Of a DNA stretch of 64,000 nt, positions 46,571-62,070 are shown piece after piece. The stretch is from a virus: positions 50,054 through 114,053 of the IMG/VR virus record IMGVR_UViG_3300035696_000017, one strand, 5' to 3'. Within the stretch, counting starts at the first letter, position 1. Each line of letters opens with the position of its first letter. Position numbers and translations under genes: made by a program. The notes beneath the pieces are model-generated. The model worked only from the letters and a program-made list of their open reading frames with translations, was not told the origin of the DNA and ran no database searches.

Positions 46571-46763
46571 GTGACGGGGGTTCCTGGTGGGGGAGGCTGC
46601 CGCCCAGAGCGTAACGCTCCAGGGCCTCCACGGCGGCGGGGCCCAGGTGGGGACGCTCACGGAGCTCGTCGAAGTCCAGCGGGATGGCGCATCCCCGTGC
46701 CGTCATCTCGAGCTCGTAGAGGTCGCGCTTGGTGGCGAAGACAGTGCCCTGGGTGTGGTCCAT
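46557..46763 (-). CDS. hypothetical protein
   Basis: Class I promoter upstream. Confidence 0.6.
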   Translation of the reverse strand: MDHTQGTVFATKRDLYELEMTARGCAIPLDFDELRERPHLGPAAVEALERYALGGSLPHQEPPSHAAS

Positions 46764-46807
46764 GGAGACCATCCTACCACCGCCGCTGCGGGAGTTGCAC
46801 CGCTCTC

Positions 46808-47380
46808 TCAGTCTTCGGGGGTGGGACCGGGTTCACCAGGGACTGCGTCACGGACCTGCTGCGCCCGGTACTCGAGGGCGCCGCGGAGGATCTCCTCGGA
46901 GCAGACGACGGCGATGACGTCGGTGACGAACCACTGGACCTCGCGGATGCGCATGCCGCGGGCCTGGGCGAACTCGACGATGCCGTAGCCCACCTGCTCA
47001 GCGAGCGGGGCCAGCTCGGCCTGGATGGCGGGGTCCAGCACCTCGCAGTCGTTGTAGCGAGTGGGCCTGGTGGTGGGGACCGGGTCGGGCCCGCCGTGGT
47101 GGACCGGGCAGCCCGGGTCGGCGCACTCTTGGCCGTCTTCACCTGGGAGGCCGGGCCCCTCGCCCAGCAGGGCCAGGAGGTCGTCAGCGGTCATCGGGGT
47201 GGCACCGGCCGGCGTCACCAGCACCCCGGGCTCGCTCCTCGGTGTGGCGCGTTTCTTGGCGGTTCCCTTGGCGGTTCCCTTGGCGGTTCCCTTGGCGGTT
47301 CCCTTGGCCGGCGTCGTGCGACGCCCCGGACGCTTCGCGGTCGACTTCACGCTCTTCTTCGCAGGCTTCTTCGAGGGCAT
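46808..47380 (-). CDS. protein with histone-like Lys/Ala-rich N-terminus
   Basis: AAGGAG SD; MPSKKPAKK...(AKGT)x4; C..P.CPVH. Confidence 0.6.
   Translation of the reverse strand: MPSKKPAKKSVKSTAKRPGRRTTPAKGTAKGTAKGTAKGTAKKRATPRSEPGVLVTPAGATPMTADDLLALLGEGPGLPGEDGQECADPGCPVHHGGPDPVPTTRPTRYNDCEVLDPAIQAELAPLAEQVGYGIVEFAQARGMRIREVQWFVTDVIAVVCSEEILRGALEYRAQQVRDAVPGEPGPTPED
47255..47308. repeat. 12-bp tandem repeat (CTTGGCGGTTCC x4.5)
   Basis: Seen directly; encodes AKGT repeats. Confidence 0.95.
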
Positions 47381-47725
47381 CGGCAGCTCCTTGGTGGTGC
47401 CCCAACCGTACACCGTGCGTCGCTGCAAGGACAAGGGGCGCCACGTCCCGAGAGGGGGACCGATTTCGACTCGTGATTTGCGCGTGATTTGTGCGAACGA
47501 TCTAAGCGGAGCCACCCCCTGGAAGGTCCTGCAAAGGTTGCCAGGGGGCCGGGGGGCCATGGGGCCCGCTAGGGGGCCTTCGAGGGGCCCCGATGGGGCC
47601 CCCTGTGGGCGGTCGATGGGGCCAGGCCCCCGGCGGGGCCCGTTACTCGCCGTCGAAGCAGATGATCCCGACGCTGCCCAGGCCCGAGCCGTCGAGCTCC
47701 CGCCCCGTCGCTGCGTCGTGCTGCA

Positions 47726-47938
47726 TCACTCCACCCCCAGCGCCAGCAGCTCGTCGCAGGCCTCGTGGTAGCGCTTGCTGAAGACAGGCACCGTGTCGAG
47801 CACCTCCTGCAGCTGCTCCTCGGTGCGGAGCTGGCGGGCGCCGTGGCGACGGCTCATCTTGGCAGCCTGACGCTTCGCCCCCTTCTTGTACCCGTCGTCC
47901 TTGCGCAGCTGCTGGGCCTTGCTCTTCTCGTACTTCAT
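47726..47938 (-). CDS. basic hypothetical protein
   Basis: Class I linker upstream. Confidence 0.65.
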   Translation of the reverse strand: MKYEKSKAQQLRKDDGYKKGAKRQAAKMSRRHGARQLRTEEQLQEVLDTVPVFSKRYHEACDELLALGVE

Positions 47939-48089
47939 GGTTCTAGTCTACCCCTTTCGCTGCTGGGTTTCACAGAAGAACAACGTGAGGGTGGGTGTCG
48001 CCAGGCGTCGTTTCACCACCACCCGGCTGCTCTCCGCTCTCTCTCGCGGCATACCTGGCACCGGGGCAGGCGCTCTCACGTAAGCTGGG

Positions 48090-48284
48090 TCAGTTGTCGC
48101 CGTAGTAGAAGGCGTTGAGGGCCCGACGGACCTCGGCGACGAGCTCCTCCTCGTAGAGCTTCTGTGCTGCCTTGCTGTCGAAGCGCTGCTCCATCCGGAG
48201 CTCGGCGATGCGGGCACCGCCCTTCTTGTGGCTCTTGCCGTGCCAGCTCGTCGCCTCGGGGTTGTGTCGGGTGTGGTTGGCCAT
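48090..48284 (-). CDS. hypothetical protein
   Basis: Class I linker upstream (48291-48320). Confidence 0.65.
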   Translation of the reverse strand: MANHTRHNPEATSWHGKSHKKGGARIAELRMEQRFDSKAAQKLYEEELVAEVRRALNAFYYGDN

Positions 48285-48316
48285 GAGTAGACTCTACCTC
48301 GATCTGCGCTGGTCTT

Positions 48317-48517
48317 TCACCTCAACGGGGTCGACGACGCCGGGTAGCCGCCGGTGATGGAGCGGTAGCACTCGCCGCTGTCGCAGCAGTAGTGCTGCTC
48401 GGTGAAGCCCACCTGGGTCTCGACCCGAGACGTCGCCTTGCGCATGCACTTGAAAACGCCGAAGCTCCCCTTGCGGAACTGCCGGCGCTTGCCCTCACAG
48501 CGTTGGGTGGTGACCAT
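48317..48517 (-). CDS. Cys-rich small protein
   Basis: Bounded by linkers on both sides. Confidence 0.65.
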   Translation of the reverse strand: MVTTQRCEGKRRQFRKGSFGVFKCMRKATSRVETQVGFTEQHYCCDSGECYRSITGGYPASSTPLR

Positions 48518-48649
48518 GGTGCTACTCTACCTCTTCTCGCTGGCGACTTGCACCGAGCGCTGGATGTATGCGGCTACCGCGAGCCAGCCGAAGACCTCGA
48601 TGACGGCGATCAGCATGTGGTAGACTCTACCAGGATCTGTGCTGATCTT

Positions 48650-48991
48650 TCACTGGTCCGGGTCAGCCCAGTGGACGTCTGACGCCGACGGCTTCTTCGC
48701 CCGTCGCTTGCTGCTCATCGAGCTCCGCGCGTCCTCGACGTTCTCTGCGGCGCGCTCGAGCAGGTCCTGCAGGCCGCGGTTGTCCTCTGCTGCTTTCGCC
48801 ATCCGTCGCAGCTGCTGGCCCATCGAGCGCAGGCGTGAGGACAGGCTCGTCGTCTTGGGGTCGGGCTTCTGGTTTGCCTCGAGCTGCTCCACGTACTTGA
48901 CGAGGGCGTGCTCCATCCCGTGCTCGTCGGACATCCAGTGCTTCGGGACGTCCTCGTGGTAGTCTCCCTGCTTCTTCACCCGCTCGAGCAT
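48650..48991 (-). CDS. hypothetical protein
   Basis: Stop within linker -35. Confidence 0.55.
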   Translation of the reverse strand: MLERVKKQGDYHEDVPKHWMSDEHGMEHALVKYVEQLEANQKPDPKTTSLSSRLRSMGQQLRRMAKAAEDNRGLQDLLERAAENVEDARSSMSSKRRAKKPSASDVHWADPDQ

Positions 48992-49140
48992 CTTCGCAGC
49001 GAGCGGCGGGCGTGTTGTCGCGGTCAAAGCAACCTCCACACGTGGACGGCGCCGGCGATGATGCCGACCCAACTGGCGACGCAGAAGGCGAGGAGACCGA
49101 GGTAGACGGCGATGGTCTTGGCAGCTTCCATGAGTCCAAT

Positions 49141-49410
49141 CTACCTCTTTTCGTCTGCGAGTTGCACAGGCTTCCACTCGAAAGCCTTCCTGTCGTAGGC
49201 AAAGAGTCCCGGCGGCGTACGCCTGACGAGCACAACCTCGCGCGGACCTACCTGCAGCAGCTTGAAGCCCACCGGCAGCTCGAACGCGGGGACGTCGTCG
49301 AGCGTCTTCACGTTGTCGGGCAACGGGAACAACCCGATGAGGTTGACGTAGGCGTTCGGGTCCAGCAGCAGGAGCTGCGCAGGCGTCACTGGGATGGGAC
49401 CGTCGGGCAT
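49141..49410 (-). CDS. hypothetical protein
   Basis: Class I linker upstream. Confidence 0.6.
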   Translation of the reverse strand: MPDGPIPVTPAQLLLLDPNAYVNLIGLFPLPDNVKTLDDVPAFELPVGFKLLQVGPREVVLVRRTPPGLFAYDRKAFEWKPVQLADEKR

Positions 49411-49442
49411 GTGGAAGACTCTATCCCTTTCTCTTAAAGAGT

Positions 49443-49472
49443 TTCACCCCGGATCTTTCGACCCAGGGTGAA
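49443..49472 (-). terminator. hairpin after the histone-like gene, overlapping the next -35 box
   Basis: TTCACCC...GGGTGAA inverted repeat. Confidence 0.45.
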
Positions 49473-49513
49473 GCCTGCGCATGATCTGTGGTAGATCTGA
49501 GCTGGTGAGGTGC

Positions 49514-50200
49514 TCAGCCTGCAGCCGCCGCCTTCGCAGCCGCCGCCGAGACGATCTCGACGTCGCTGGTGAAGAGGTAGACCGGCTTCTTGGCGCCCTC
49601 GACCTCGACGTAGCAGCGGATGCGCTGCGCCTTGGAGACGGTGCCCGTCTGGCCGATGTAGCGGGGGTCGCCGCCGACGATGGTGACCTTCATGCCCGCC
49701 TCGATGGTCTGGCTCAGCGCACGCTCGGTCGCCCGGACGCGGTTGAAGTGCTGCAGCTGCAGCGCCAGGATGGAGACCTGAGCCGCCGGCAGGTTCGCCG
49801 TCGCCTCGTTGAAGATGAGCTGAGCAGCCTCGGTCATCGTGCCGAGACGCTCGCCCGCCTTCGCGACCTTCCGCATGTGGGCAGGCTGGCGTGCAGCTTC
49901 ACGCTCCGCCTTCTTCGTCGCCCGCGCAGCCTCGCGAGCCGCCTTCTTCTCGGCGCGCTCCTGGGCCTTCGCCGCTTCCCGAGCAGCCTTCTGCTCGTCG
50001 GTGAGGCGCGGGCGCTTGGGAGCGGAGGGCTCCTTCGCGGCCTTGGGAGGCTTCGCGGGCTTCTCGCCAGTCGTCTCGGCAGTCGCCGTTGCAGCGGTGC
50101 CGCTCTTCGAGGCCTTGCGGTTCTTCGCAGCGGCCAGCGCCTTGTCGAGCTGCGTGACCTTCTCGTCGGTCAGCGTGCCCGTCGTTTCCTTGGTTGCCAT
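49514..50200 (-). CDS. histone-like Lys/Ala-rich protein with C-terminal KOW/SH3 domain
   Basis: AGGAG SD; KA-rich; GMKVTIVGG...GQTGTV. Confidence 0.7.
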   Translation of the reverse strand: MATKETTGTLTDEKVTQLDKALAAAKNRKASKSGTAATATAETTGEKPAKPPKAAKEPSAPKRPRLTDEQKAAREAAKAQERAEKKAAREAARATKKAEREAARQPAHMRKVAKAGERLGTMTEAAQLIFNEATANLPAAQVSILALQLQHFNRVRATERALSQTIEAGMKVTIVGGDPRYIGQTGTVSKAQRIRCYVEVEGAKKPVYLFTSDVEIVSAAAAKAAAAG

Positions 50201-50278
50201 GGTCGGGTTTCTCCTGTGTTCCTTGTTCGTGGGTGTTGTTACCCTGTCGAGTTCCACTCTATCGCTTGCCAGGGGGAA

Positions 50279-50896
50279 TTACACCGCCTGAGCAACATTC
50301 GTGTCTGCCGGCTTTTCCTCGCGAATCGCCGGGACCCGCATCGCGTCCTGGATGCTCTTGAGGTCGGCCTTGAGCTGGTCGACGCTGTACTCCGCCTCGT
50401 AGTAGGCTCGCGCGAGCTCCTCGTCGACGTTCTCGAGGTACTTGCCCACGAAGTCGTGCTCCCAGATGCCCGCGGCCTTGCAAGCCCGGAACTGGTAGAG
50501 CTTCTCGGGCATGTACTCTGCGTGCCTGCACGTCTGCGTGTCGAGGGGCCGACCCAGCTTCTGCTGGGCAAGCGCCATGCGACAGTGCTGCAGCATGCGG
50601 CTGCGGAGGATGTAGCGGTCGTCGCCCTCGCGCCCGTCTTCCTTGTCCCACTTGACGTTGGCTAGGTTGACGATGTTGTAGGTCGTCCGCTTGGGGTGCG
50701 ACCAGTTGTTGTGCCCGAGCACCACGCCCGGCTTGACGCCGACCTCGGTCTTGACGTGGCACCAGAACTTGTAGTGGTCGTGGGGGACCGAGTTCTCCCA
50801 GGTCCCGTCGCTGATCTGCCCGCTGACCTCGCTGTGCCAGAGGCAGACCGCCGTCAGGGTCGGGAGGACGAGCTTGTTGCTTGCTTTGGCTTCCAT
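50279..50896 (-). CDS. hypothetical protein (GQISDG.WEN motif)
   Basis: Linker upstream; stop TAA within GTGTAA. Confidence 0.7.
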   Translation of the reverse strand: MEAKASNKLVLPTLTAVCLWHSEVSGQISDGTWENSVPHDHYKFWCHVKTEVGVKPGVVLGHNNWSHPKRTTYNIVNLANVKWDKEDGREGDDRYILRSRMLQHCRMALAQQKLGRPLDTQTCRHAEYMPEKLYQFRACKAAGIWEHDFVGKYLENVDEELARAYYEAEYSVDQLKADLKSIQDAMRVPAIREEKPADTNVAQAV

Positions 50897-51103
50897 GGTT
50901 CCATCCTACCCCAGTTCGGCTGGGACTTTCACAGTAGTCCGGCTTCTCGGAGCTCCCGCTCCGCATCGTTGCTCGCTGAGCAGGCAACCCTCAGGGCCTG
51001 CTCGAGGTCCCTCGACAGCTCCTCGAGCCGCTTTGCGGACTCGTAGTGGTGGAACTGCCTCAGCTCCTTGATGAGCTCCTCGTCGGTCTTCCTGCGGGCC
51101 ATG

Positions 51104-51364
51104 TCAGCGCTCCCACAGGTGTTCGGAGGCCATGAAGCCCTCCGCGAAAGCTTTGACCTCGAGCGAGGCTCGACGGAGGTCCTCGCTCTCGACGGTGTAG
51201 ACCCCGAGCGCGTGCTCAGCTGCCTTGACGAAGAACTTGAAGCCCGGGTACTTCTTCGCCAGCGCGTCGCAGCAGCGCTTGGCGTCGTGCTTGACCTCCT
51301 CGTCGATGTTCTGAGCGTACTGGGCTCGGGGGTTGACGGGCTTGCCGACGGTGATGAGGATCAC
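51104..51364 (-). CDS. hypothetical protein
   Basis: GTGA overlap. Confidence 0.55.
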   Translation of the reverse strand: MILITVGKPVNPRAQYAQNIDEEVKHDAKRCCDALAKKYPGFKFFVKAAEHALGVYTVESEDLRRASLEVKAFAEGFMASEHLWER

Positions 51365-51762
51365 AGGTCCCACCCTTTCTCGATGCCGCGGGAGGTGCGA
51401 GCCTGCTTGCGGAGGTACACGGTGTAGACCCGCGTGGGTCGCACCGTCGCCGTCACGTACTGCAGGTCGTCCGCCACGTTCCAGCAGACCGTCGCACGGT
51501 CGACACGGTCGATGTCGGGCTCGAACGGGTCCGTCGCTGCGGCGGCCTGCACCTGCCGCAGGATGCGGAGCACCTGCTTGTCGTTGACCTGGTCGTCGTC
51601 GTAGGCGTAGCCGTGGCTCGCCGTGACCTCGTCCTTCGAGGCGACGGTGCAGTAGTACTTGCCGTTGCAGCCGCAGGCGCAGCCGGGCTTGCCGCTGTAG
51701 GCGTTCTCGATGTCCGCGACGGTGAGGGACTGGACGATCTCGTTGGCTTTGGCTTGGTCCAT
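51361..51762 (-). CDS. hypothetical protein (YSGK.GCACGC.G.Y motif)
   Basis: Linker upstream. Confidence 0.7.
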   Translation of the reverse strand: MDQAKANEIVQSLTVADIENAYSGKPGCACGCNGKYYCTVASKDEVTASHGYAYDDDQVNDKQVLRILRQVQAAAATDPFEPDIDRVDRATVCWNVADDLQYVTATVRPTRVYTVYLRKQARTSRGIEKGWDL

Positions 51763-51794
51763 GGTCTTATCCTACCCCAAGTCGCTGACGACTT

Positions 51795-51995
51795 TCACCG
51801 AGCGGGCACGTAGTCCCACTTTGAGTAGTTGAAGTCGAACTGCAGGTTGTACGGAAGGGCGGCCCAGAAGCCCTTGAGGGTCTGGACGTTGCAGTAGGTG
51901 TCGACGTGCTTGCAGAGGTCCACGGCGTCCTTGACGCGGGACAGCTGCTCGGGGGTGTAGTCCTGCGGGGGCGCTCCGTCGGTTGTTCCAGGCAT
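51795..51995 (-). CDS. hypothetical protein
   Basis: Bounded by linkers. Confidence 0.65.
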   Translation of the reverse strand: MPGTTDGAPPQDYTPEQLSRVKDAVDLCKHVDTYCNVQTLKGFWAALPYNLQFDFNYSKWDYVPAR

Positions 51996-52027
51996 GAGCC
52001 AATCCTACCAGGCTTCCCGGTGGACTT

Positions 52028-52366
52028 TCACAGCGACCGGAACAGGACCTCGCACTTCAGCTTCTCGCTCCACCCCGCCCTCAGGCCCTTCGGCCGGCGG
52101 TGATAGCCTACCCACTGTGGACGACACGAAGTGACGACGAGGGCCAACGTGAGGGTCTTGAGGGTCCCGTCGGGCTTGTGGGGCCAGGACTTGTAGGGCC
52201 CGTACAGGATGGGCTCGCCCCCGTCGTCGTGCCAGCGACCCGCAGCTGCATCGCGGGCTCGAAGCTCGGCGATGTCAGCGGCGGTCCGCAGGACCCAGAT
52301 GTCGTGCTTGCGGGCGTTGAGGAAGACGCGGTCACCACGGCGGACGGTGCAGCTGAGGGGTTCCAT
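52028..52366 (-). CDS. hypothetical protein
   Basis: Bounded by linkers. Confidence 0.65.
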   Translation of the reverse strand: MEPLSCTVRRGDRVFLNARKHDIWVLRTAADIAELRARDAAAGRWHDDGGEPILYGPYKSWPHKPDGTLKTLTLALVVTSCRPQWVGYHRRPKGLRAGWSEKLKCEVLFRSL

Positions 52367-52469
52367 GGTGACCAGTCTACTCCTTTTCCTAGCCAACTTT
52401 CACCGTTCCTTGTTGCCGGCCGTCAGCTGCTTGCGGAGGGCCTCCGGGGTGGTGGGTGACTAGACGATA

Positions 52470-52661
52470 CTACCACCTCTCTTCCACGGCGACTTGCACC
52501 GGGGGAGAGATGACGTTGACGTGGGCGTAGAAGTTGGGCCCTCGCGGGCGACCCGCGCGCGTGCGCGGTGGCGAGTTCGTTCGAGCCTGTGCCCACCGCA
52601 TGAACTCGATGTAGCACGTCCAGCAGCGGAAGGGCTCGTTGCAGTAGTGATGGAACGTCAT
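52470..52661 (-). CDS. hypothetical protein
   Basis: AGGAG SD, ATGA overlap. Confidence 0.5.
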   Translation of the reverse strand: MTFHHYCNEPFRCWTCYIEFMRWAQARTNSPPRTRAGRPRGPNFYAHVNVISPPVQVAVEERW

Positions 52662-52861
52662 GGTTGTCTCCTCGTCACCGTGTAGCCCGCGTGCTCCATC
52701 ATCCTGATGATGACCTCCATCGGGACGTACGCCGTCGTGTGCTCCCGCAAGTAGCCGCTCCCCTGCTCGACGTCGACCTGCACGGTCTCGTTGTCAACGC
52801 ACACCTCAACCCCGCCCTCTCGAGCGAAGTTCATGAACTCTGACTGCTCGAACGTCCACAT
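52658..52861 (-). CDS. hypothetical protein
   Basis: GAGGAG SD. Confidence 0.6.
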   Translation of the reverse strand: MWTFEQSEFMNFAREGGVEVCVDNETVQVDVEQGSGYLREHTTAYVPMEVIIRMMEHAGYTVTRRQP

Positions 52862-52873
52862 GATGCGCTCCTC

Positions 52874-53080
52874 TCAGACGTTGTGACAACGTCGGTACTG
52901 CGACAGGAACTGGGCGACAGACAGCCTCTGGGGCGACGAGCCGGGCTCGAAGCTGACGAAGCTGACGTGGCTGCAGCTGACCTGTCGGACGAGCTGGGGG
53001 ATGCCCCCGCCTCGAGCGACCCAAGAAGACCCGGGGAGCAGCTGGCGGAAGCGGCGGTGAGAGATTCCGTTGTTGTTCAT
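52874..53080 (-). CDS. hypothetical protein
   Basis: Linker upstream. Confidence 0.55.
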   Translation of the reverse strand: MNNNGISHRRFRQLLPGSSWVARGGGIPQLVRQVSCSHVSFVSFEPGSSPQRLSVAQFLSQYRRCHNV

Positions 53081-53154
53081 GAGTCCAATCTAACACGAAA
53101 TCCCCGGGACCTTCACAGATCCCAGGGAGAACGTGACGGTTGTTGCGGTTGTTG

Positions 53155-53622
53155 TCAGCCCAGGTCAGCTTCCTTCATCTGGTCCTTCCAGGCGTCCCAG
53201 TCAAAGCCGGAGGTGTCCCCCTCCGCCATGATGCGAGCGACGCTGGCCCAGCTGCCCACCGGGGGCTCACTGACCTCACGGTTGTAGCCCGAGGTAGTTG
53301 CTACTGTTGCCGCGGCCGGGCGCTTCTGCGTCTCCTTGGCGTTGGCAATCTCGCACAGTTGTCGATGGTAGTGCTTCGCAATCCGACGGGCGTTGCCCAG
53401 GTGGTGTCCCGTCAGCTTGCGGCCACTGAGCACCCACCGAGCGTAGTACGAGCCCTTCGAGGCGTGTGCCGCGGTGAAGCCCACGGTGTTGTCGTGCTTC
53501 GTGTCCGACGTTGCCTTCTCGTCGCGGGTCTGGCGATCGTAGATGGCGACGATGGCGCGCTCGACGGCGCGGTCGTTGTTGTCCAGCAGGTTCTGAATCT
53601 TGTCTTTGGTCCAGGTTGCCAT
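53155..53622 (-). CDS. conserved phage hypothetical protein
   Basis: Linker upstream; AVERAIVAIYDRQT.DE...N.VGF...Y.RQL. Confidence 0.7.
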   Translation of the reverse strand: MATWTKDKIQNLLDNNDRAVERAIVAIYDRQTRDEKATSDTKHDNTVGFTAAHASKGSYYARWVLSGRKLTGHHLGNARRIAKHYHRQLCEIANAKETQKRPAAATVATTSGYNREVSEPPVGSWASVARIMAEGDTSGFDWDAWKDQMKEADLG

Positions 53623-53719
53623 GAGTCCAATCTAACACGATTACCCCGGACCTTGCACAGATCCAGGGTGGGTGATGGAGCGAGGCGGATGTAAAATCCG
53701 CCCCGTTTGGGTGAAAGTG

Positions 53720-53896: not shown

Positions 53897-53936
53897 GGTC
53901 CCAGTATACCCCAATCACCCCTGATCTTTCACCGTT

Positions 53937-54603: not shown

Positions 54604-54644
54604 GAGTCCAATCTACCAGGATCCGCGCCTGGCTTTCACTGCGA

Positions 54645-54902: not shown

Positions 54903-54952
54903 GCCCCCAATCTACCACGATCAGGGTCATGCTTGCACCGCAACCGCGCCGC

Positions 54953-55198
54953 TCAGCCCTTGCTGTTGCAGGGGACGCGGACCTTGCCCCACGTCTCCGA
55001 GACGCCCTTGGCGCCGCGCTTCCGCTGCGTGACGGTGATGGTGCCGTCGCCGTTGCCCACGATGCGGACCAGGAGCTCCGCGCTCGGGACGATCTTGCTC
55101 TCTTCCTTCGTGCCGAAGGTCTCGCCGGCGAAGAGGGTGTGGGTGACGCCGTTGCGGCAGTAGACCCGGCGGGGGCTGTTGGTGCTCTTCATGCTCAT
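54953..55198 (-). CDS. hypothetical protein
   Basis: Leadered linker variant plus GGAG SD. Confidence 0.6.
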   Translation of the reverse strand: MSMKSTNSPRRVYCRNGVTHTLFAGETFGTKEESKIVPSAELLVRIVGNGDGTITVTQRKRGAKGVSETWGKVRVPCNSKG

Positions 55199-55273
55199 GA
55201 TGTTCTCTCCGTGTCGGTTGGTTGTTGCGGTGACTTGTCTAGAGTAACACTGATCCGCGCAGCCTTGCACAGT

Positions 55274-55561
55274 TCAGTCGTTGTAGATGTTGATCCGGAT
55301 GCCGTCTTCGGACCGGAAGTACCAGGAGGTGATCTCGCCCTCGCCGTCCTTCTCCTCGCTTTCGAGCGTGAAGAGCTTGAGCTCGTTCTTGCCCTGGACC
55401 ATGAAGCCAACGTCGGCGCTGTCCGGCCAGACGCGAGCGTAGAAGAAGCTGAAGCCGTGAGCCGGTCGGAGGTCGCTGGCCTCGCAGACGCCGAGGCGAC
55501 CGCGCCAGCCGAACTGGTTGCCCTTGAAGCAGGGAATCTCGAGGGTTCGTTTCGTCATCAT
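55274..55561 (-). CDS. hypothetical protein
   Basis: Linker upstream. Confidence 0.7.
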   Translation of the reverse strand: MMTKRTLEIPCFKGNQFGWRGRLGVCEASDLRPAHGFSFFYARVWPDSADVGFMVQGKNELKLFTLESEEKDGEGEITSWYFRSEDGIRINIYND

Positions 55562-55593
55562 GAGACCATCCTACCAGGATCTGCGTTGTTCTT

Positions 55594-55959
55594 TCACCGC
55601 CGGCAGAAGCGCTCGGCAGCTTTGGCACACGCCTCGTAGCGCATGATCATCACCCGGTTGTTCCCATCGCCGACGCCCCAGCTCATGGCAGCGACGATCT
55701 CGCGGCCGAGGCGGGACGGGTAGGGCTGACCCGCACGGTGGCATCCCTCTCTCCGCACGAGCATCGCGCGCTCGCGCATGCGCTTGGCGAAAGCCAGGGC
55801 CTTGGTGTACCTCTCATACCGGGAGTAGATGCCCTTGAGGGCGTTGGACACCATCGTCTCGTACCGCTTGGTGTCGAGGGAGCGGACGCCCTTGCCGAAC
55901 GTCCACTCCGCGTAACCCTTGTCGCTCTGAACCGCTTGCTTCCAGGTCTTCCTTGCCAT
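55594..55959 (-). CDS. hypothetical protein
   Basis: Bounded by linkers. Confidence 0.7.
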   Translation of the reverse strand: MARKTWKQAVQSDKGYAEWTFGKGVRSLDTKRYETMVSNALKGIYSRYERYTKALAFAKRMRERAMLVRREGCHRAGQPYPSRLGREIVAAMSWGVGDGNNRVMIMRYEACAKAAERFCRR

Positions 55960-56004
55960 GAGTCAGTTGTACCAGGATCTGCGTTGATCTTTCACTGCAC
56001 CGGT

Positions 56005-56517
56005 TCAGAACTTGCTGCGAGGCAACGTGATGGGACGCTTGATGGATGAAGCCGGGACGGGACCAGCACCCGTGATGGGCCCCCAGAAGGCACGGTCGTT
56101 GAGCCATTTGTCGAACTCGAAGTTGTGCCCGCGCTGGCAGCGCCGGGTCTGGAGGCCGCCCATCTCGCTGTAGAGCTTCTTGCTCTTTGCACCGCAGGTT
56201 GGGCAGCAGATGAACTGCGGCTTAGCGCCACGCTCGATGTTCTTGGCCCGGGTCTTGGCTGCCTTCTCGGCACCCTTGGCACGGCGAGAAGCGACGTTGG
56301 CCTTGACCGTAGCCAACAGCTTCTTGTACTGGATGGGCCCACAGATGCGATACTCGGGGGAGTGGCCGCACTTCTCGGCGTGCTTGAGCATCCGGGCCTT
56401 CTCCTCCTTGAGGAAGACCTCGTTGTCGGACTCGACCTTGACGGTGACCTTCATCTTGCCGTTCCAGGAACGGGTGACGAGGACCAACTTGAACTTCGGA
56501 GCAGGGGTGGTTTCCAT
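56005..56517 (-). CDS. zinc-ribbon-containing basic protein
   Basis: Linker upstream; CPTCG...C..GH. Confidence 0.7.
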   Translation of the reverse strand: METTPAPKFKLVLVTRSWNGKMKVTVKVESDNEVFLKEEKARMLKHAEKCGHSPEYRICGPIQYKKLLATVKANVASRRAKGAEKAAKTRAKNIERGAKPQFICCPTCGAKSKKLYSEMGGLQTRRCQRGHNFEFDKWLNDRAFWGPITGAGPVPASSIKRPITLPRSKF

Positions 56518-56556
56518 GGTTCTAGTCTACCTCAGATCAGGTTGGGGTTGCACAGA

Positions 56557-56754
56557 TCACGAAAACGAGGGGAAGCCGTCCTCGACCCACTGGGAGACGT
56601 TGTAGTCGGGGTCCCTGGGCAGGATGCCGTCCCAGTATGCCTCACGGAGGAAGTCGCGCTCCTCCTGGTCGGGTCGCCCGCCGCCGTTGCGGTACTTCTG
56701 CCACAGGCGTCGGGCCTCGAGCGCTCTCGCTTGCTTGGGTGCGTAGTTTGCCAT
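56557..56754 (-). CDS. hypothetical protein
   Basis: Linker upstream. Confidence 0.65.
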   Translation of the reverse strand: MANYAPKQARALEARRLWQKYRNGGGRPDQEERDFLREAYWDGILPRDPDYNVSQWVEDGFPSFS

Positions 56755-56786
56755 GATAGCAGTGTACCATGATCAGCACAGATCTT

Positions 56787-57065
56787 TCACCACTGCACGC
56801 CGTTCGTCTTGAGGACGGTGAAGAAGGTGTCGGGCAGCTCGTCACGGACGATGGTGTCGAGCTCAGCCGCCGCGTCTCGAGCCTCCCGCAGCTTGCCCCG
56901 AGCGACGAGGCGAGCGACCGCCTTCAGGTCCTTGCGGTCGTTGCGGTAACACTCGAGCATCTTCTTGTCACCCTTGGAGCTCTTCTTGCCTCCCTCGTTC
57001 CAGCGCTCAGCGCGAGCCACGATGTCACCTGCCACCATCTCGAACACGGCGTTCTTGGTCTTCAT
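56787..57065 (-). CDS. hypothetical protein (LDT.VR motif)
   Basis: GAGGAG SD; stop in linker. Confidence 0.65.
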   Translation of the reverse strand: MKTKNAVFEMVAGDIVARAERWNEGGKKSSKGDKKMLECYRNDRKDLKAVARLVARGKLREARDAAAELDTIVRDELPDTFFTVLKTNGVQW

Positions 57066-57066
57066 C

Positions 57067-57198
57067 TCAGTACTCCTCTCGTTTCCAGCTCTTCCGAGCG
57101 TCCTTGGCTCGCCGGTTGCGGCGGTCCCGGTGGGTGGTCTGGGTCTGGCCGTAGCGCTTCATCATCGCCACGGCGACGGGGTTCCTGGGCTTGGCCAT
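57067..57198 (-). CDS. small basic protein (RNPVA motif)
   Basis: Linker upstream; MAKPRNPVAVAMMKR...H.DRR. Confidence 0.6.
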   Translation of the reverse strand: MAKPRNPVAVAMMKRYGQTQTTHRDRRNRRAKDARKSWKREEY

Positions 57199-57236
57199 GA
57201 GACCAATCTACCAGGAACCCCGCAGATCTTTCACCC

Positions 57237-58004
57237 TCAGTCGTGGTCGAAGGTGTCGTCGTAGAGGGCGTCCACACCGAAGAACGCCGCGGTCTCTGCG
57301 GGCATCTGCTTGCTGTACCGCGAGCGTCGGGTGCTCAGGCGGTGACCGGTGCCGAAGCCGGAGGGGGTGAAGGTCTGGCTTGCACCGCTCTGGATCCTCT
57401 TCTTCATCGCCTCGAGGTTGTCCTGGTGCACCCGGTAGCTGAAGCCTGGTATGCTCACCATGTGCTTGGACGCCTCACGGGACCTGCCAACCAGGGCGAT
57501 CTGCTCCTGGATGACCCTCTCGATGTCCCCGGCGGTGTCGCCGTAGGCACCAAGGTAGAAGCTGTCCGAGACACCCCTGCGGTCGAAGGAGGCCCAGAAA
57601 CCGCTCTCTGCCTTGAAGCAGGTGTGGCCCGACGCCGAGAGGACGGGCTTGGCGGGCAGCTTCTTGGGCTTCTTGCCCTTGGTCCACTCACGGTGCATCT
57701 CCGGCGCACGGGAGACGCAGCAGGAGATGGCGATGCCCGCCGCCTCGTTGCGGATGAGGACGTAGTCGGAGCCGCGCCACCAGGGCTGGCCGATGCCCCA
57801 GCCGCCGTTCTTCTCGTGGGTGGTCCCGTTGTGCCAGCCCTCGCCCGTCTCCTTGACGAAGCCCTCGGGCACCGGGAAGCTGTCGATGAACGCCCTGATG
57901 ACGGGCTTGAACTTCGTGGCCTGCTGCTCGCTGCGCCGGCAGTCGACGCAGACCTTGTTGGTGGAGACGCGGTTGCTGCAATGGAGGCACTTGGTGTTTG
58001 GCAT
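57237..58004 (-). CDS. hypothetical protein with N-terminal zinc finger
   Basis: Linker upstream; CLHC..CVDC; FTPSGFGTG. Confidence 0.7.
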   Translation of the reverse strand: MPNTKCLHCSNRVSTNKVCVDCRRSEQQATKFKPVIRAFIDSFPVPEGFVKETGEGWHNGTTHEKNGGWGIGQPWWRGSDYVLIRNEAAGIAISCCVSRAPEMHREWTKGKKPKKLPAKPVLSASGHTCFKAESGFWASFDRRGVSDSFYLGAYGDTAGDIERVIQEQIALVGRSREASKHMVSIPGFSYRVHQDNLEAMKKRIQSGASQTFTPSGFGTGHRLSTRRSRYSKQMPAETAAFFGVDALYDDTFDHD

Positions 58005-58034
58005 GATCGAATCCTACCAGGATCTGCGCCGATC

Positions 58035-58112
58035 TTACACAGACACCGGGCGCTTGATGGCCGACTCCGGGACGACCTTGCCCGTCAGGACCGGCGCCCA
58101 GAAGGCACGGTC
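58035..58112 (-). pseudogene. C-terminal remnant of a paralog of 56005..56517
   Basis: DRAFWAPVLTGKVVPESAIKRPVSV* versus DRAFWGPITGAGPVPASSIKRPITL; no ATG at the usual position. Confidence 0.7.
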
Positions 58113-58184
58113 CGATAGTAACACGGTCACCCCAGACCTTGCACAGATCCAGGGTGTCCGGTGGAGATCATGTGTGGTAGAGTT

Positions 58185-58868
58185 TCAGTCGACCTTGACG
58201 AACCCCCGTTCGATGAGGGCGTTCCGTGCGTCCTTCTGGACGTTGGAGTTCTTCCCCTCCTTCGACAACCACACCAGTGTCTCTCGGGTCACGTTGGGGT
58301 GAGCGACACAGTCCCGTTGGATGGTGACCTTCTTGGTCTTCCGGGCGACGAGGTCGACGACCTTCCCGGACACGTGTTTGTTGTGGAGGATGAAACACCC
58401 GATCTCTCCACCCTTCGTCCCCTTCGTCGGGTCCTTCTTCGGGTCCCGGTTCAGGATCTCGAGGAGGAGGGACTCGGAGACTTTCGGGTTGTAGATGACC
58501 GAGATGAGGCACTTGGGACAGTTCCGGGCGACGAACTCGAGGATCCTGTCACGGTCGGTGAGGGTCGGGTCCTGGAGGATGCGCCCGTCGATCCAGTGCC
58601 AGGCGACGAGGTGCGAACCCGCCTTCTTCGCTTTCTCGAACTCGTTCCAGTCCTTGTCGACCTTGTAGTACCACTCCTGGTACTCGAGGGCACGGGGCGT
58701 GAAGTTGTCGAAGTTGGGGACCTCGTCGAGTATGTCCCCGAGCGCCTTCTGAAGGTTCCCACTGTGGGTCTCCGAGAAGATGCCCCTGTCGTCCGTCTCG
58801 TAGTACTCGTCTCGTCCGACGTAGGTGTCGTGGGTGGTGTACCAGCGATACGTGCGTTTCTCCGTCAT
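58185..58868 (-). CDS. hypothetical protein with helical (LRV/HEAT-like) repeats
   Basis: GGAGG SD; NPKVS..LL, HPNVT.ETL..L repeats. Confidence 0.6.
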   Translation of the reverse strand: MTEKRTYRWYTTHDTYVGRDEYYETDDRGIFSETHSGNLQKALGDILDEVPNFDNFTPRALEYQEWYYKVDKDWNEFEKAKKAGSHLVAWHWIDGRILQDPTLTDRDRILEFVARNCPKCLISVIYNPKVSESLLLEILNRDPKKDPTKGTKGGEIGCFILHNKHVSGKVVDLVARKTKKVTIQRDCVAHPNVTRETLVWLSKEGKNSNVQKDARNALIERGFVKVD

Positions 58869-58947
58869 GTGACCTCCAGGAGTCCAGTCTACCACGAATC
58901 GTTGTCGAGGTTCACCCTCGCGGGCCCGCGCCCGCGCGTGCGCTTCT

Positions 58948-59445
58948 TCAGCAGGAGAACATCAGGGCATGGGCGCCGCACAGGCCGGGATCGACCTTCA
59001 GCAGCTTCTTGCACGCCTTCCCGATCCGTTCGAGGTCTTCCTGGTGCTTCACCAGCTCCTTGATGCTCGCGCTGCCGTCCTCGTACTTCATCTTGGCGCA
59101 GGTCAGGCAGACGAAGATGTTGCAGCCGTTGTAGAAGTCTCCCGTCACCCGGACATCGCAGTCCAGGAGCTCACCGATCGCTTCGGTGATGTCGTCCTCG
59201 GGGTTGAAGTTCTCGAGGTCGGTGTCGTCCTCGGGTCCCTCGAAGACCCGCTTGCCGACGGCGACGTCGAAGCCCGCTACGCGGTCGACGACCTTCTCCT
59301 GCTTGTCGAGCTTCTTGCCGGTCTTGGGGTCGAAGCGGTCCTCCATGTGGAAGACCTCCTTGCTCTCGACGAGCAGGGGCTTGAAGAAGTCCTCGACGGG
59401 GATGACGTAGCCAACGATGAGTTCTGCGCTTCGGTCGACGCTCAT
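58948..59445 (-). CDS. hypothetical protein (RFDPKTGKK motif)
   Basis: Linker upstream. Confidence 0.7.
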   Translation of the reverse strand: MSVDRSAELIVGYVIPVEDFFKPLLVESKEVFHMEDRFDPKTGKKLDKQEKVVDRVAGFDVAVGKRVFEGPEDDTDLENFNPEDDITEAIGELLDCDVRVTGDFYNGCNIFVCLTCAKMKYEDGSASIKELVKHQEDLERIGKACKKLLKVDPGLCGAHALMFSC

Positions 59446-59454
59446 GGCTCTAGT

Positions 59455-59682
59455 CTACCCCACTTCCTTGTCGAGGTTCACCGCGATGTGATGGAGCTCC
59501 GCCTGCAGCGTGCTCGTGAGCTTCGCCCAGTCTGCTTGGGCGATGACGTTGAGGATGCGTGCTTTGCAGGCGCCGCAGGTGACGAGCTTCACGTTGTCGG
59601 TGATGGAGCCCTCGCTGCGGTCGCCCGCTCCCATGTTGCTCCCGCAGTCCGCGAAGCGGTGGAGCTTCTTGGTGTAGGCCAC
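59455..59682 (-). CDS. small zinc-finger protein
   Basis: GGAG SD; H..CG...VTCGAC. Confidence 0.6.
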   Translation of the reverse strand: MAYTKKLHRFADCGSNMGAGDRSEGSITDNVKLVTCGACKARILNVIAQADWAKLTSTLQAELHHIAVNLDKEVG

Positions 59683-59683
59683 G

Positions 59684-60052
59684 TTACTCTCCAGTCCTCC
59701 ACCCGTAGGGCTTCTTCGAACGACCCTCCCGCGTCACGGTGAAGCGACGTGCCAGGAAGCTGTCGAGGTTCACGTAGGCGTCGTTGAGGCACTCGACGTC
59801 GCTGCGGCTGATGCCACAGTTGTGGAGCATGCCCTCCGTTTGGTCGTTGATGTCCTCGACCCGGGCAACGATGCCCACGATGACGTCGTTGGGCAGCTTG
59901 GCGCCGTGGACCACGAAGTCCGTCGGGTTGAAGTGTCGCAGCTCTCGACGGAGCCACGTGATGGAGGTGCCGCCGATGCCGTCCTCGATGAGGGACTGGA
60001 GCGAGTCGGCGACCTTCTCGGTGATGGTGATTCGCTTGGGGGTGGTTGTCAT
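59684..60052 (-). CDS. hypothetical protein
   Basis: Linker upstream. Confidence 0.65.
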   Translation of the reverse strand: MTTTPKRITITEKVADSLQSLIEDGIGGTSITWLRRELRHFNPTDFVVHGAKLPNDVIVGIVARVEDINDQTEGMLHNCGISRSDVECLNDAYVNLDSFLARRFTVTREGRSKKPYGWRTGE

Positions 60053-60091
60053 GTAGCTAGTGTACCTCAGATCACGCCGGGGTTACACTGG

Positions 60092-60313
60092 TCAGGCGTG
60101 CATCGGCACCGAGGCCGGGATGACCATCCAGCGGTCGCCCTCGCCCCAGTTGACGTTGACGGTGGTGCCGTCTCCCTCGAGGGTCACTGCAACGTTGCCC
60201 GTCTGCTCGTTGACGGTTGCTACCTCCCCCGTCACGCCGTCCTTCGTGGAGGCGCTGTGGAGGATGCGGATGCGGCGGCCTTCGAGAGTCTTGCTGGGGA
60301 GGCGGTTGGTCAT
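60092..60313 (-). CDS. small SH3-like protein (DUF4314-like)
   Basis: Linker upstream; GRRIRI...GVTGEV..V. Confidence 0.6.
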   Translation of the reverse strand: MTNRLPSKTLEGRRIRILHSASTKDGVTGEVATVNEQTGNVAVTLEGDGTTVNVNWGEGDRWMVIPASVPMHA

Positions 60314-60380
60314 GAGCCAAATGTACCACCGGGGACCCGGCGTTTGCACAGGTCCCCGGCGATGGGAGGGAGTTGGTGTG

Positions 60381-60773
60381 TTACCGGCGGACGCCCGGGA
60401 TGCCGGTGATGAAGCCGATGTTCTTGATGCTCTCCAGGTCCTTGACCAGGAGGGCGTCGACCTGCGCACGGGAGAGGCCGAGGTCCAGGCCGTGACGGGC
60501 GCACAGGGACTCGAAGAGGCCACCGAGCTCGTGGGCAGCGTCCTCGATGGGCGTGGTCCGACGGTAGACGGGTTCGATGGAAAACTCGTCGGCGTCGACC
60601 TCGGGATGGACGTCGAGGTACGCAGCGAGGCGCCGGAACGCGTCACCACGCGGGATGGGGTCCGTCTCGTCGCAGGTCATGAAGGGGCGACAGGTCGTCG
60701 GGTCGGCACCGATGAACTCTTCGGTGTCGGGGTGGAGGACGCGGTATCCGATGATTTCGTTGGTTTGGGCCAT
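60381..60773 (-). CDS. hypothetical protein
   Basis: Linker upstream. Confidence 0.65.
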   Translation of the reverse strand: MAQTNEIIGYRVLHPDTEEFIGADPTTCRPFMTCDETDPIPRGDAFRRLAAYLDVHPEVDADEFSIEPVYRRTTPIEDAAHELGGLFESLCARHGLDLGLSRAQVDALLVKDLESIKNIGFITGIPGVRR

Positions 60774-60930
60774 GAGTAGACTCTACCACGAGTGGCGGTT
60801 GGCTTTCACAGTGTTGGGGAGAGATTGTGCCTGGTACGATGGTCTCCCGTGGACGGACACGCGCCCGCGCGTGCGCTTCTATTAAACGAGCCCAGGGGCC
60901 GCAGCCCCTGGACCGACCCTTGGTGATGCT

Positions 60931-61521
60931 TCAGGCGAAGAGGGCTGAGAGCTCCACCATCCGCTTGGCGCACTCCACGGTGGGGGCGTAGATGCCCTTG
61001 GCCGCACGGTACCAGTAGGTGCGCCGGAAGAAGTAGCCTCCCCGGGCGAAGCCCCACGGGTGGTTGGTGTCATCCTTGGCGGCTTCCTTCTCCCGCCTGA
61101 TCTCTGCCTTGGTGGGCGCCTTGTGGCAGGTGGAGACGCTGTAGCCCATGTGCATCCAGTTGCCCGGGCTCATGGCGTTGGCGCCGACGAAGCCGTAGCC
61201 TCCCGAGGCGCAGGTGTTGAAGAGGTACGTGAAGTACATCTTGGGCTTGGTGATGACGCAGGGCACAGTGCGAGACTGGCCGTTGGCGTTGTAGACGTAG
61301 CGGTGGCCCTTCTCCTCCCGCCACTCGGCCTTGCCGAAGCGCCACTCCATCATGGCGTCCTGGATGTCCTGGAGCTGCATGGGTCCCAGCCTCCAGAGCA
61401 GGAACGCCACGGCGTCGTGGTTGTTGATGGTCCTCTTGGTCGGGTTGGTCCGGTGCGAGAACTTGAGGGTCTTGAGCTTGTCGATGGCTTGCTGGCGGTC
61501 TTCTTCGGGGGTGGTCAGCAT
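60931..61521 (-). CDS. hypothetical protein
   Basis: Linker upstream; first gene of the leftward block. Confidence 0.7.
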   Translation of the reverse strand: MLTTPEEDRQQAIDKLKTLKFSHRTNPTKRTINNHDAVAFLLWRLGPMQLQDIQDAMMEWRFGKAEWREEKGHRYVYNANGQSRTVPCVITKPKMYFTYLFNTCASGGYGFVGANAMSPGNWMHMGYSVSTCHKAPTKAEIRREKEAAKDDTNHPWGFARGGYFFRRTYWYRAAKGIYAPTVECAKRMVELSALFA

Positions 61522-61608
61522 GGATACATCCTACCACCAGTCACCCGTCGCTTGCACCGTCTCGTACTCGATCGCGCGCCCGCGCGGACGCATTGGCCGG
61601 CGGGGCCT

Positions 61609-61638
61609 GTGCAACCCGCTGACGCACCGTGGTACACT
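61609..61638 (+). promoter_or_regulatory. class I promoter with no downstream ATG
   Basis: GTGCAA-N18-TACACT-GGGCTC-AATC. Confidence 0.65.
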
Positions 61639-61756
61639 GGGCTCAATCGGCCAGTACCGTCTGGCGGGCCCTGGGTTGCTTGCTCAGCCAAGCGGGGAGC
61701 CACGCAGCCTGCCCTCGTTTCGGGCCAGTGGGAAAGTGCTGGTGGTCTGCTGGACT

Positions 61757-61786
61757 GTGCAAGCTGGTGGGGGTTCGTGGTAGACT
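61757..61786 (+). promoter_or_regulatory. class I promoter (leaderless)
   Basis: GTGCAA-N18-TAGACT-AGGACC-ATG. Confidence 0.75.
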
Positions 61787-61792
61787 AGGACC

Positions 61793-61999
61793 ATGCCCAA
61801 TCGACACGCCACCAGCCACCAGGAACGAGCCGACCGCTGCGAGGACGCCCTCCGCCAGCTCGACGACGCCATCTGCAACGTCAGCCTCATCGTCCAGAGC
61901 CTCAGCGAGACCGGCAACCAGATGGTGGCCGACGAGTGGCAGAAGGTCCAGGAGCAGCTCCACGACTGCCGCATCAAGGCGACCAACCTGGCTCGCTGA
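61793..61999 (+). CDS. hypothetical helical protein
   Basis: Linker upstream. Confidence 0.65.
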   Translation: MPNRHATSHQERADRCEDALRQLDDAICNVSLIVQSLSETGNQMVADEWQKVQEQLHDCRIKATNLAR

Positions 62000-62070
62000 G
62001 GACAGTGTAAACTCCCGACCCACCAGGGTACTATCTACCTCTCTCCACCACCCCAAAGGAGACAACATCC

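Follow-up and report, generated by a model that had tools for sequence, protein, structure and literature searches.

Organization of the small-gene array

The window analysed here is a 64,000-nucleotide stretch of viral DNA that corresponds to bases 50,054-114,053 of a 114,053-bp IMG/VR contig of peat origin (IMGVR_UViG_3300035696_000017). Its minus strand carries, from 61,557 down to 46,557, an array of 38 small genes in 28 transcription units, all of which point leftward. The units are joined by short linkers in which a -35 box, GTGMAA, a -10 box and usually the ATG of the next gene follow each other at nearly fixed distances. As set out below, this linker is very likely a conserved promoter giving rise to leaderless early mRNAs.

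The contig, which is 31% complete according to CheckV, encodes an ATP-dependent DNA ligase, two RNA ligases and an RpoD-like sigma factor; the window has a G+C content of ~62% and includes 23 tRNA genes. A megablast search of the window against cultured phages gave no match. DNA searches against 15 motif-bearing IMG/VR records identified relatives, whose genomes are designated G001 (G1) and so on, the phage of the present contig being G000 (G0). The closest relative, G001, has a genome of 369,475 bp with direct terminal repeats and shares 66-82% DNA identity with the contig, in patches only. G001, G004 and G011 encode the gp23-type major capsid protein of T4 (PF07068, E ~1e-65), and the capsid protein of this clade shows merely 30-50% identity to that of any deposited phage. 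The contig is therefore part of the genome, of roughly 370 kb, of an uncultured jumbo phage of the T4 superfamily.

The array genes encode proteins of 29-255 amino acids (aa), with a median of 89 aa. One gene is found in 20 of the 28 units, two genes in six and three genes in two; the original description of the region as a series of single-gene cassettes is therefore right for 20 units and wrong for the other eight. The internal genes of the multi-gene units have Shine-Dalgarno (SD) sequences of the GGAG type, often overlapping or abutting the preceding stop codon. None of the ten largest array proteins has a match in Pfam, and one of them matches a PHROG of unknown function. When metagenome contigs were searched with one array protein, a single distant locus with 48% identity was recovered. 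Paralogy was considered as the origin of the array and rejected, as no protein pair within it reaches E<=1e-4.

Gene 49514-50257 is the only array gene that is conserved clade-wide at the DNA level (G001-G005, G011, G012 and G015). Searches with its product gave no Pfam or PHROG match, and its look-alikes are all viral hypothetical proteins. The Atlas record of this protein begins at residue 20, which would leave a leader of ~50 nt behind the promoter at 50,284. The array is bounded by a divergent control region, in which the promoter at 61,557 lies on the minus strand and those at 61,609 and 61,757 lie on the plus strand; G001 is arranged alike.

Geometry of the linker

The strict pattern, GTG(C/A/T)AA-N17/18-TA(G/C)nnT-N6/7-ATG, has 41 matches on the minus strand and one on the plus strand of the window, and 44 and one, respectively, in the whole contig. 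Twenty first-order Markov shuffles of the contig gave a mean of 0.05 matches and a maximum of 1, and a control pattern written backwards gave 0. The copies were also located with a position weight matrix (PWM), which scores the -35 and -10 boxes separately and does not score the ATG. At a score of at least 16, the PWM identified ~58 sites on the minus strand and 2 on the plus strand, the next-best plus-strand site scoring only 12.7. The window contains 54 of these sites (52 minus, 2 plus), and 32 of them (30 minus, 2 plus) lie between 46.7 and 61.8 kb, which corresponds to one per ~480 bp; 25 strict matches fall in the same interval. The original prediction, which had counted about 50 copies by eye, about 30 of them between 46.7 and 62 kb, was accurate in this respect.

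The 33 copies with the commonest spacing have the consensus cgGTGMAAg, an 18-nt spacer ending in tGG, TAGRnT, ggnnyC and ATG. In the strict set, the G, T, G, A and A of the first box and the T, A and final T of the second box are invariant. The spacer is 18 nt long in 51 of 54 sites, and the bases at -15, -14 and -13 are T (56%), G (90%) and G (87%), which corresponds to the TGn of an extended -10 element. The -35 hexamer GTG(C/A)AA matches TTGACA at only three or four of six positions and has an invariant G at the first position, where T is expected; it had been called non-canonical before, correctly. A generic promoter scan recovers merely one of the 32 array copies. The DNA upstream of the linkers is C/G-rich and holds little information content.

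The ATG lies 6 nt after the -10 box in 39 sites and 7 nt after it in nine, that is, in 48 of 54 sites together, and 90% of the copies have a C at -1. Where a start codon is nearby, it is ATG, not GTG or TTG, in 49 of 51 copies. These ATGs open frames of 29-479 codons with a high G+C content at third codon positions (GC3). A few copies are leadered and carry an SD, such as the promoter at 58915, whose 11-nt leader contains GGAGG. As SDs of the GGAGG type are present at the internal genes of multi-gene units and in these leadered variants, the absence of an SD at the motif-linked starts is specific. The leaderless layout first proposed for the linker, with extended -10 geometry, the A of the ATG at the predicted +1 and no room for an SD, is supported, and exactly the same positions are kept in six related phages.

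Conservation in related phages

The strict pattern recurs many times in at least 10 other large IMG/VR contigs. In G001, 34 of the 37 strict copies lie at 5-84 kb of the 369-kb genome, nearly all on the same strand, in a contiguous and mostly leftward region that includes the sigma gene.

The -35 box was also sought without reference to its sequence, from an anchor that consists of TANNNT, 6 nt, ATG and an open frame. This anchor recovers GTGMAA at a distance of exactly 18 nt in 50-80% of the anchors in six phages, whose G+C contents range from 47 to 62%. The -10 hexamer is likewise recovered in five relatives, and its flavour drifts with G+C content. In ten pairs of orthologous promoters, the two boxes, the TGG and the CATG are conserved, whereas the spacers are 33% identical, compared with 34% for random pairs. 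Since the boxes, their spacing and the position of the ATG are kept while the spacers are randomised, the linker is under selection, which maintains precisely the positions that a promoter with a start codon at +1 would need.

G005 and G008, which were considered as a close strain pair, were rejected as such: they represent one phage, being 99.998% identical with no gaps. The whole of G008 (52,608 bp) corresponds to G005:136,229-188,836, and the two come from different samples (3300028654 and 3300031344). Three copies of the motif with leaderless ATGs also occur within 1 kb on contig CAZPXK010000001.1 (57 kb; L125 and L144), which is binned in a Bdellovibrionales metagenome-assembled genome (MAG). 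This contig looks like one from a phage of the clade that was mis-binned into a bacterial MAG.

Stop codons and unit boundaries

The linkers are packed tightly against the preceding genes. In 12 cases, the stop codon of the upstream frame precedes the next -35 box by 0-9 nt. In ~8 cases, the -35 box itself supplies the stop, as TGA or TAA, and the distance from stop to ATG is exactly 32 nt; in ~5 cases, the stop is the TAG of the -10 box. In total, the stop is found at most 9 nt from the -35 box or inside it at 20 junctions.

All 11 positions at which a stop within the -35 box had previously been listed are real stops, formed by the TGA or TAA in GTGAAA, GTGAAT or GTGTAA, and they end frames of 66-332 codons. 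The coding G+C bias is convincing in nine of these 11 frames (GC3 of 0.75-0.94), the frames that end at 5731 and 6936 being doubtful. The notion that one short element supplies stop, promoter and start applies at about 1/4-1/3 of the junctions, a frequency that is roughly the random-frame expectation. As ~10 of the 26 boxes of the A/T variants serve as stops, compared with 8.7 expected for a random frame, we read the shared stops as a by-product of tight packing and not as a designed feature.

Terminator-like sites show no excess in the array (13, compared with 11.8 expected), and an Rfam search of the array gave no family match.

Linker subclasses

Two features are restricted to subsets of the linkers. 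The first is a GATC at spacer position 10 or 11 (about -20 to -17), which is present in 10 of 30 array promoters and in none of the 28 promoters outside the array; the chance expectation is ~0.3 copies at any one spacer position. The promoters of this class span 48,282-60,088 of the window, and a second GATC is often found directly after the -35 box, at spacer position 1. In G001, the feature occurs in 17 of 42 array promoters (66.5-78.8 kb), usually as CGCAGATC. This suggests that the GATC may be an operator for a regulator, or a methylation-sensitive site, specific to the block of small genes.

The second feature is a hairpin. Folding is well beyond that of shuffled sequences in about six of 58 copies, with z between about -2.8 and -6.3; the mean z is -0.6. 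The -35 box is enclosed by a hairpin (-20 to -31 kcal/mol) in four copies (60,349; 58,144; 53,658; 53,116) and in one copy of G001. The loci of this subfamily are 60,326-60,368, 58,121-58,163, 53,635-53,677 and 53,093-53,135 in the window, and L031:3898-3940. Their stems comprise 10-13 bp and hold the -35 box in the loop, and the stem sequences differ yet stay complementary across copies and phages, with compensatory changes in four of 11 stem pairs among the five hairpin sequences. At the hairpin junctions, the upstream gene is further away, and their layout is similar to that of the terminator-promoter composites known as promoter-early stem-loop (PeSL) cassettes, to which we return below.

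Proposed mechanism

In the mechanism that we propose, an extended -10 core of the sigma-70 type (TGG-TAGRnT), placed 18 nt downstream of the invariant, non-host-like GTGMAA box, would direct transcription to start on the A of the ATG, with a C at -1, and the leaderless mRNA would be translated without an SD. The ~58 copies would drive the leftward early region, with their highest density in the block of small genes that have no known relatives. Because most junctions leave no room for a terminator, upstream transcripts would probably read through and the units would form a nested set, a hairpin being added at only 4-6 junctions. Where a frame enters a promoter, it is closed in the -35 box, at TGA or TAA, or in the -10 box, at TAG. 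The host primary-sigma holoenzyme would most likely be the first to recognise the promoter, by contacts with TGn and the -10 hexamer, and the conserved GTGMAA box would imply an additional specific contact. The start site, the leaderless translation, the timing and the reader are what we infer from the sequence. A search for RNA sequencing runs that contain 47,900-57,800 of the window gave no match.

Instead of promoters, the linkers could be RNA processing sites or translation-initiation elements within polycistronic transcripts, comparable to the start-associated sequences of mycobacteriophages. Such a signal would equally be in keeping with the constant distance to the start codon and with the lack of a terminator excess between units. 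However, the rigid 18-nt gap, the TGn, the TAnnnT and the pyrimidine-purine step 6-7 nt downstream correspond to the geometry of a sigma-70 promoter. In addition, the leadered variants retain both boxes while their ATG is shifted away and an SD is added, and copies occur ahead of tRNA genes and on the opposite strand at the divergent control region. Most copies are also without a conserved RNA structure, as judged from the mean z and from the Rfam search. Taken together, these observations make a signal acting at the RNA level very improbable. As regards the tRNA genes, the copy at 16,256-16,297 lies upstream of a tRNA cluster whose genes occupy 14,945-15,632; the promoter class is therefore not confined to protein-coding genes.

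Three observations weigh against a promoter of leaderless early mRNAs that is read by the host. First, the -35 box is invariant even though it matches TTGACA at only three or four positions, which is unlike a simple reading by the host sigma. Second, a motif scan of bacterial genomes showed no taxon to be enriched among the first 120 matches listed. Third, if read-through is common, downstream genes are also present on long transcripts without an SD, on which their translation is unexplained. In the same scan, 11 matches in the Gammaproteobacteria MAG CAXXLL01 (L105, L110, L115 and eight further loci) were examined and set aside as chance, since all 11 belong to the same repeated element, copied without change and probably an insertion sequence, in which the pattern precedes a 91-codon frame.

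Table 1 Promoter copies and associated features of the window. Boxes are given as -35/-10; "leaderless" denotes a predicted start of transcription at the ATG, and lengths in aa refer to the gene that follows.
Feature	Coordinates	Strand	Basis
Hyperplastic array, 38 small genes, 28 transcription units	46557..61557	-	
Linker GTGCAA/TAGGAT, leaderless ATG, 196-aa open reading frame (ORF); first unit of the array	61519..61557	-	
Linker GTGAAA/TAGAGT, leaderless, 130 aa	60771..60809	-	
Linker GTGCAA/TACATT, leaderless, 73 aa; -35 box in loop of 13-bp hairpin (-31 kcal/mol)	60311..60349	-	
Linker GTGTAA/TACACT, leaderless, 122 aa; GATC in spacer	60050..60088	-	
Linker with variant box GTGAAC, leaderless, 165 aa	59443..59481	-	
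Promoter GTGAAC/TAGACT, 11-nt leader with GGAGG, ATG of ~228-aa gene; G002 ortholog leaderless	58866..58915	-	alignment (G002 ortholog)
Orphan promoter GTGCAA/TACTAT, followed by GTG and only 7 codons	58106..58144	-	
Fossil: non-coding remnant, homologous to 3' end of gene 56517-56005; GACC junction	58040..58108	-	sequence comparison
Linker GTGTAA/TAGGAT, leaderless, 255 aa; GATC class	58002..58040	-	
Linker GTGAAA/TAGATT, leaderless, 43 aa	57196..57234	-	
Linker GTGAAA/TACACT, leaderless, 65 aa; TGA of box ends upstream ORF; GATC class	56752..56790	-	
Linker GTGCAA/TAGACT, leaderless, 170 aa; GATC class	56515..56553	-	
Linker GTGAAA/TACAAC, leaderless, 121 aa; GATC class	55957..55995	-	
Linker GTGAAA/TAGGAT, leaderless, 95 aa; TGA of box is stop of upstream gene; GATC class	55559..55597	-	
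Linker GTGCAA/TAGATT, leaderless, 85 aa; GATC class	54900..54938	-	
Linker GTGAAA/TAGATT, leaderless, 149 aa; GATC class	54601..54639	-	
Linker GTGCAA/TAGAGT, 7 nt to ATG; 59-aa gene, absent between orthologous neighbours in G001	54114..54153	-	
Linker GTGAAA/TATACT, leaderless, 58 aa	53894..53932	-	
Linker GTGCAA/TAGATT, leaderless, 155 aa; hairpin around -35 box; ~50 nt in common with copies 53116 and 58144	53620..53677	-	
Linker GTGAAG/TAGATT, leaderless, 68 aa; hairpin around -35 box (-27.7 kcal/mol)	53078..53135	-	
Linker GTGAAA/TAGACT, 7 nt to ATG, 112 aa	52364..52403	-	
Linker GTGAAA/TAGGAT, leaderless, 66 aa; TGA of box is stop of upstream gene	51993..52031	-	
Linker GTGAAA/TAGGAT, leaderless, 133 aa; TGA of box is upstream stop; heads three-gene unit	51760..51798	-	
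Linker GTGAAA/TAGGAT, leaderless, 205 aa	50894..50932	-	
Promoter GTGTAA/TAGAGT, 17-nt spacer, no ATG at +1; TAA ends 205-aa gene; leadered unit for 49514-50257	50256..50284	-	
Linker GTGAAA/TAGAGT, 7 nt to ATG, 89 aa; strong hairpin immediately upstream	49408..49447	-	
Linker GTGCAA/TAGATT, leaderless, 35 aa; TAG of -10 box is stop of upstream gene	49129..49167	-	
Linker GTGAAA/TAGAGT, 7 nt to ATG, 29 aa; TGA of box ends upstream ORF; GATC class	48614..48653	-	
Linker GTGCAA/TAGAGT, leaderless, 66 aa; TAG of -10 box is stop of upstream ORF	48515..48553	-	
Linker GTGAAA/TAGAGT, leaderless, 64 aa; TGA of box is stop of upstream gene; GATC class	48282..48320	-	
Linker GTGAAA, 17-nt spacer, TAGACT, leaderless, 70 aa	47936..47973	-	
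Linker GTGCAA/TAGGAT, 7 nt to ATG, 68 aa; last copy of the dense array	46761..46800	-	
Same promoter class, no start codon at +1; divergent control region	61609..61638	+	
Same promoter class, leaderless ATG, 68-aa ORF 61793-61999	61757..61795	+	
22 copies outside the dense array	263..45097	-	
-35 box starts of outside copies	45097, 44335, 42932, 39873, 38608, 35900, 33495, 29010, 25095, 24436, 22855	-	
-35 box starts of outside copies (continued)	20696, 16297, 14933, 14714, 10344, 7914, 6941, 6456, 5734, 1873, 301	-	
Outside copies preceding, among others, DNA ligase gene (5698), sigma-gene operon and tRNA cluster	14933, 14714 (sigma-gene operon); 16297 (tRNA cluster)	-	
Phage RpoD-like sigma (regions 2 and 3, 4.1), ends before -35 recognition helix; candidate reader	12248..13120	-	

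Recognition of the GTGMAA box

The question that we rank as the most interesting is what reads GTGMAA. The phage sigma aligns to residues 360-570 of E. coli sigma-70 and stops 21 residues beyond this part; an apparent first helix of the region 4.2 helix-turn-helix is retained, the recognition helix is not. An ortholog with 59-88% identity is present in five of the five relatives tested, with one per genome. In G000, G001 and G003, the sigma operon itself lies behind promoters of this class, and therefore an enzyme that is present at infection must use them. The host holoenzyme would be the simplest candidate for the reader at this stage.

Alternatively, GTGMAA could be recognised by a phage factor and not by region 4 of the host sigma, an explanation that is possible although we lean against it. 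The factor could be the truncated RpoD-like sigma together with a partner protein, or an activator that replaces the -35 contact (sigma appropriation), and in that case the array would be of a delayed-early or middle class, or the host would start it weakly and the phage factor would then boost it. The invariance of a non-canonical box at the same position in all six phages, despite their different G+C contents and the drift of the -10 flavour, is consistent with such a factor, as are the ortholog in every relative tested and the end of the sigma before the recognition helix of region 4.2. Moreover, the -35 contact is dispensable at TGn/-10 promoters (Hinton 2010, PMC2988021), which makes a host-driven start followed by enhancement by the phage mechanistically possible.

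On the other hand, the dependence of the sigma gene on these promoters in three phages calls for a reader that is there before infection. The ORFs adjoining the sigma gene, in which the partner of a split sigma was sought, have no Pfam match at E<=1 and no similarity to region 4. No homolog of MotA or AsiA (PF09158, PF09010) was found in G000 or in the three complete relatives G001, G004 and G011, the control genomes of this search holding no positive case. The box and the sigma co-occur among related phages, and hence their association is not independent evidence. In G001, a 335-aa frame also contains a weak second match of the Sigma70_r2 type (48,968-49,099; E 1e-3), and it may encode a divergent sigma-like protein.

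With the host holoenzyme kept as the simplest candidate, we have also considered a scheme in which a phage -35 reader acts with the truncated sigma, in a clade-wide two-part code on leaderless mRNAs, the GATC serves timing or silencing, and the linkers are joints for gene shuffling. This combination as a whole is unlikely.

Possible recombination at the linkers

The linker had originally been proposed to be a recombination handle for gaining, losing and shuffling small genes. A role of the linkers in recombination is plausible and would be compatible with their role as promoters, and the proposal that they are also sites at which small genes are gained, lost or reordered by homologous or microhomology exchange is tentative and rather doubtful. 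The gene content of the array turns over fast, with whole genes as the unit of change. For about 15 of the ~40 array genes, the array of G001 contains a homolog; these are mostly collinear and aligned end to end, with one three-gene block located at a different place. The gene 54153-53933, together with its linker, sits exactly between the stop codon of a conserved gene and the -35 box of the next gene.

A fossil at 58040-58144 points in the same direction. Here, an orphan promoter is fused, at a GACC microhomology immediately behind its -10 box, to what is left of the 3' end of a paralog of gene 56,517-56,005. The linkers at 58144, 53658 and 53116 share 38-51 nt at 88-92% identity ahead of unrelated genes, and a few other linker pairs share 26-39 nt. 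As orthologous linkers are saturated, these three linkers were copied recently. With regard to the variable positions, an identity of 0.55 is reached by 3.3% of the linker pairs within the genome, compared with 1.3% and 0% of pairs between genomes. A precedent for exchange at promoters is provided by the PeSL cassettes of T4-type phages (PMC2839356, PMC4122927). Spacer identity was also tried as a measure of whether a linker travels with its gene, and it proved uninformative, since orthologous spacers are as different as random pairs and thus saturated.

Several observations speak against the linkers as sites of exchange. Their mean identity is 54%, and the exact in-register run has a median of ~6 nt and a maximum of 22, which is short for homologous recombination. 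The intergenic DNA is almost purely linker, so surviving breakpoints would fall there under any mechanism. Promoter and gene do not form a fixed unit: across phages, orthologs can be leaderless, leadered with an SD, or promoterless, and two genes that are predicted to be leaderless here have leadered, SD-bearing orthologs in G001. Between the same conserved genes, a linker can be present or absent (G0 genes 30-31-32, compared with G1 genes 39-40-42). Finally, the similarity between copies within the genome is only slightly above that between genomes, and part of it is the functional GATC sub-motif, which G001 also has.

Comparison with known systems

The closest known system is that of the PeSL cassettes, which T4-type phages carry in hyperplastic regions (Arbiol et al. 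2010, PMC2839356; Comeau et al. 2014, PMC4122927) and for which recombination was shown by comparison of close pairs and by mini-circles (PMC2839356, PMC4122927). The present array shares with them a phage of the T4 superfamily, as indicated by the gp23-type capsid protein of the relatives, and repeated strong promoters of the early type between small genes without relatives, in a region of fast-changing content. The pairing of a hairpin with a promoter, which is found at 4-6 junctions here, is a further likeness. In contrast to PeSLs, most of the copies have neither a stem-loop nor an AT-rich upstream part, the stop of the preceding gene lies 0-9 nt before the promoter or inside it, and the -35 box is not the host consensus. 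In addition, the start codon is at the predicted +1, whereas PeSL units are leadered. Compared with the promoter cassettes that T4-type phages are known to have, the array appears to be a variant that is leaderless and for the most part free of terminators.

The early promoters of T4 are phage-specific, very strong promoters with UP, -35, TGn and -10 elements that lie ahead of small genes (Hinton 2010, PMC2988021). Both phages use many copies of one phage-specific extended -10 promoter before small prereplicative genes and tRNA genes, presumably read by the host holoenzyme directly after infection. The promoters described here differ in having no UP element, a GTGMAA box with an 18-nt spacer and predicted leaderless starts; this phage has an RpoD-like sigma, which T4 does not. 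The middle promoters of T4, which depend on MotA and AsiA, also combine a host-type -10 element with a phage-specific upstream box and are a possible model for the reading of a non-host box. However, the box of the present phage differs in sequence and is located at -36 to -31, whereas the MotA box is centred at -30.

Leaderless mRNAs are known from bacteria, an example being that of lambda cI from PRM, and they are abundant in Actinobacteria and Deinococcus. The TANNNT box 6-7 nt before the ATG and the absence of an SD are the same here. What differs is that one near-invariant promoter is reused ~50 times and is kept across very different G+C contents. In the literature that was searched, no paper on arrays of leaderless early promoters in T4-type or jumbo phages turned up.

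The array had also been called integron-like in effect. Like integron cassettes, it is a same-strand array of small, unrelated and fast-changing genes. Unlike integrons, which have one Pc before promoterless cassettes, each unit has its own promoter, and the linkers are not imperfect palindromes of the attC type; no integrase is implicated, none having been searched for.

Implications

The idea of gene shuffling at the linkers extends the published PeSL model and contains no new principle. The combination of a conserved non-host -35 box with a sigma factor whose -35-reading helix is missing is a testable entry to a possibly new form of promoter recognition. For annotation, the motif would settle which start codon is the true one in ~50 genes here and in hundreds of genes of the relatives. 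Provided that transcription does start where predicted, most early genes are expressed from leaderless messages in a large uncultured branch of the T4-type jumbo phages.

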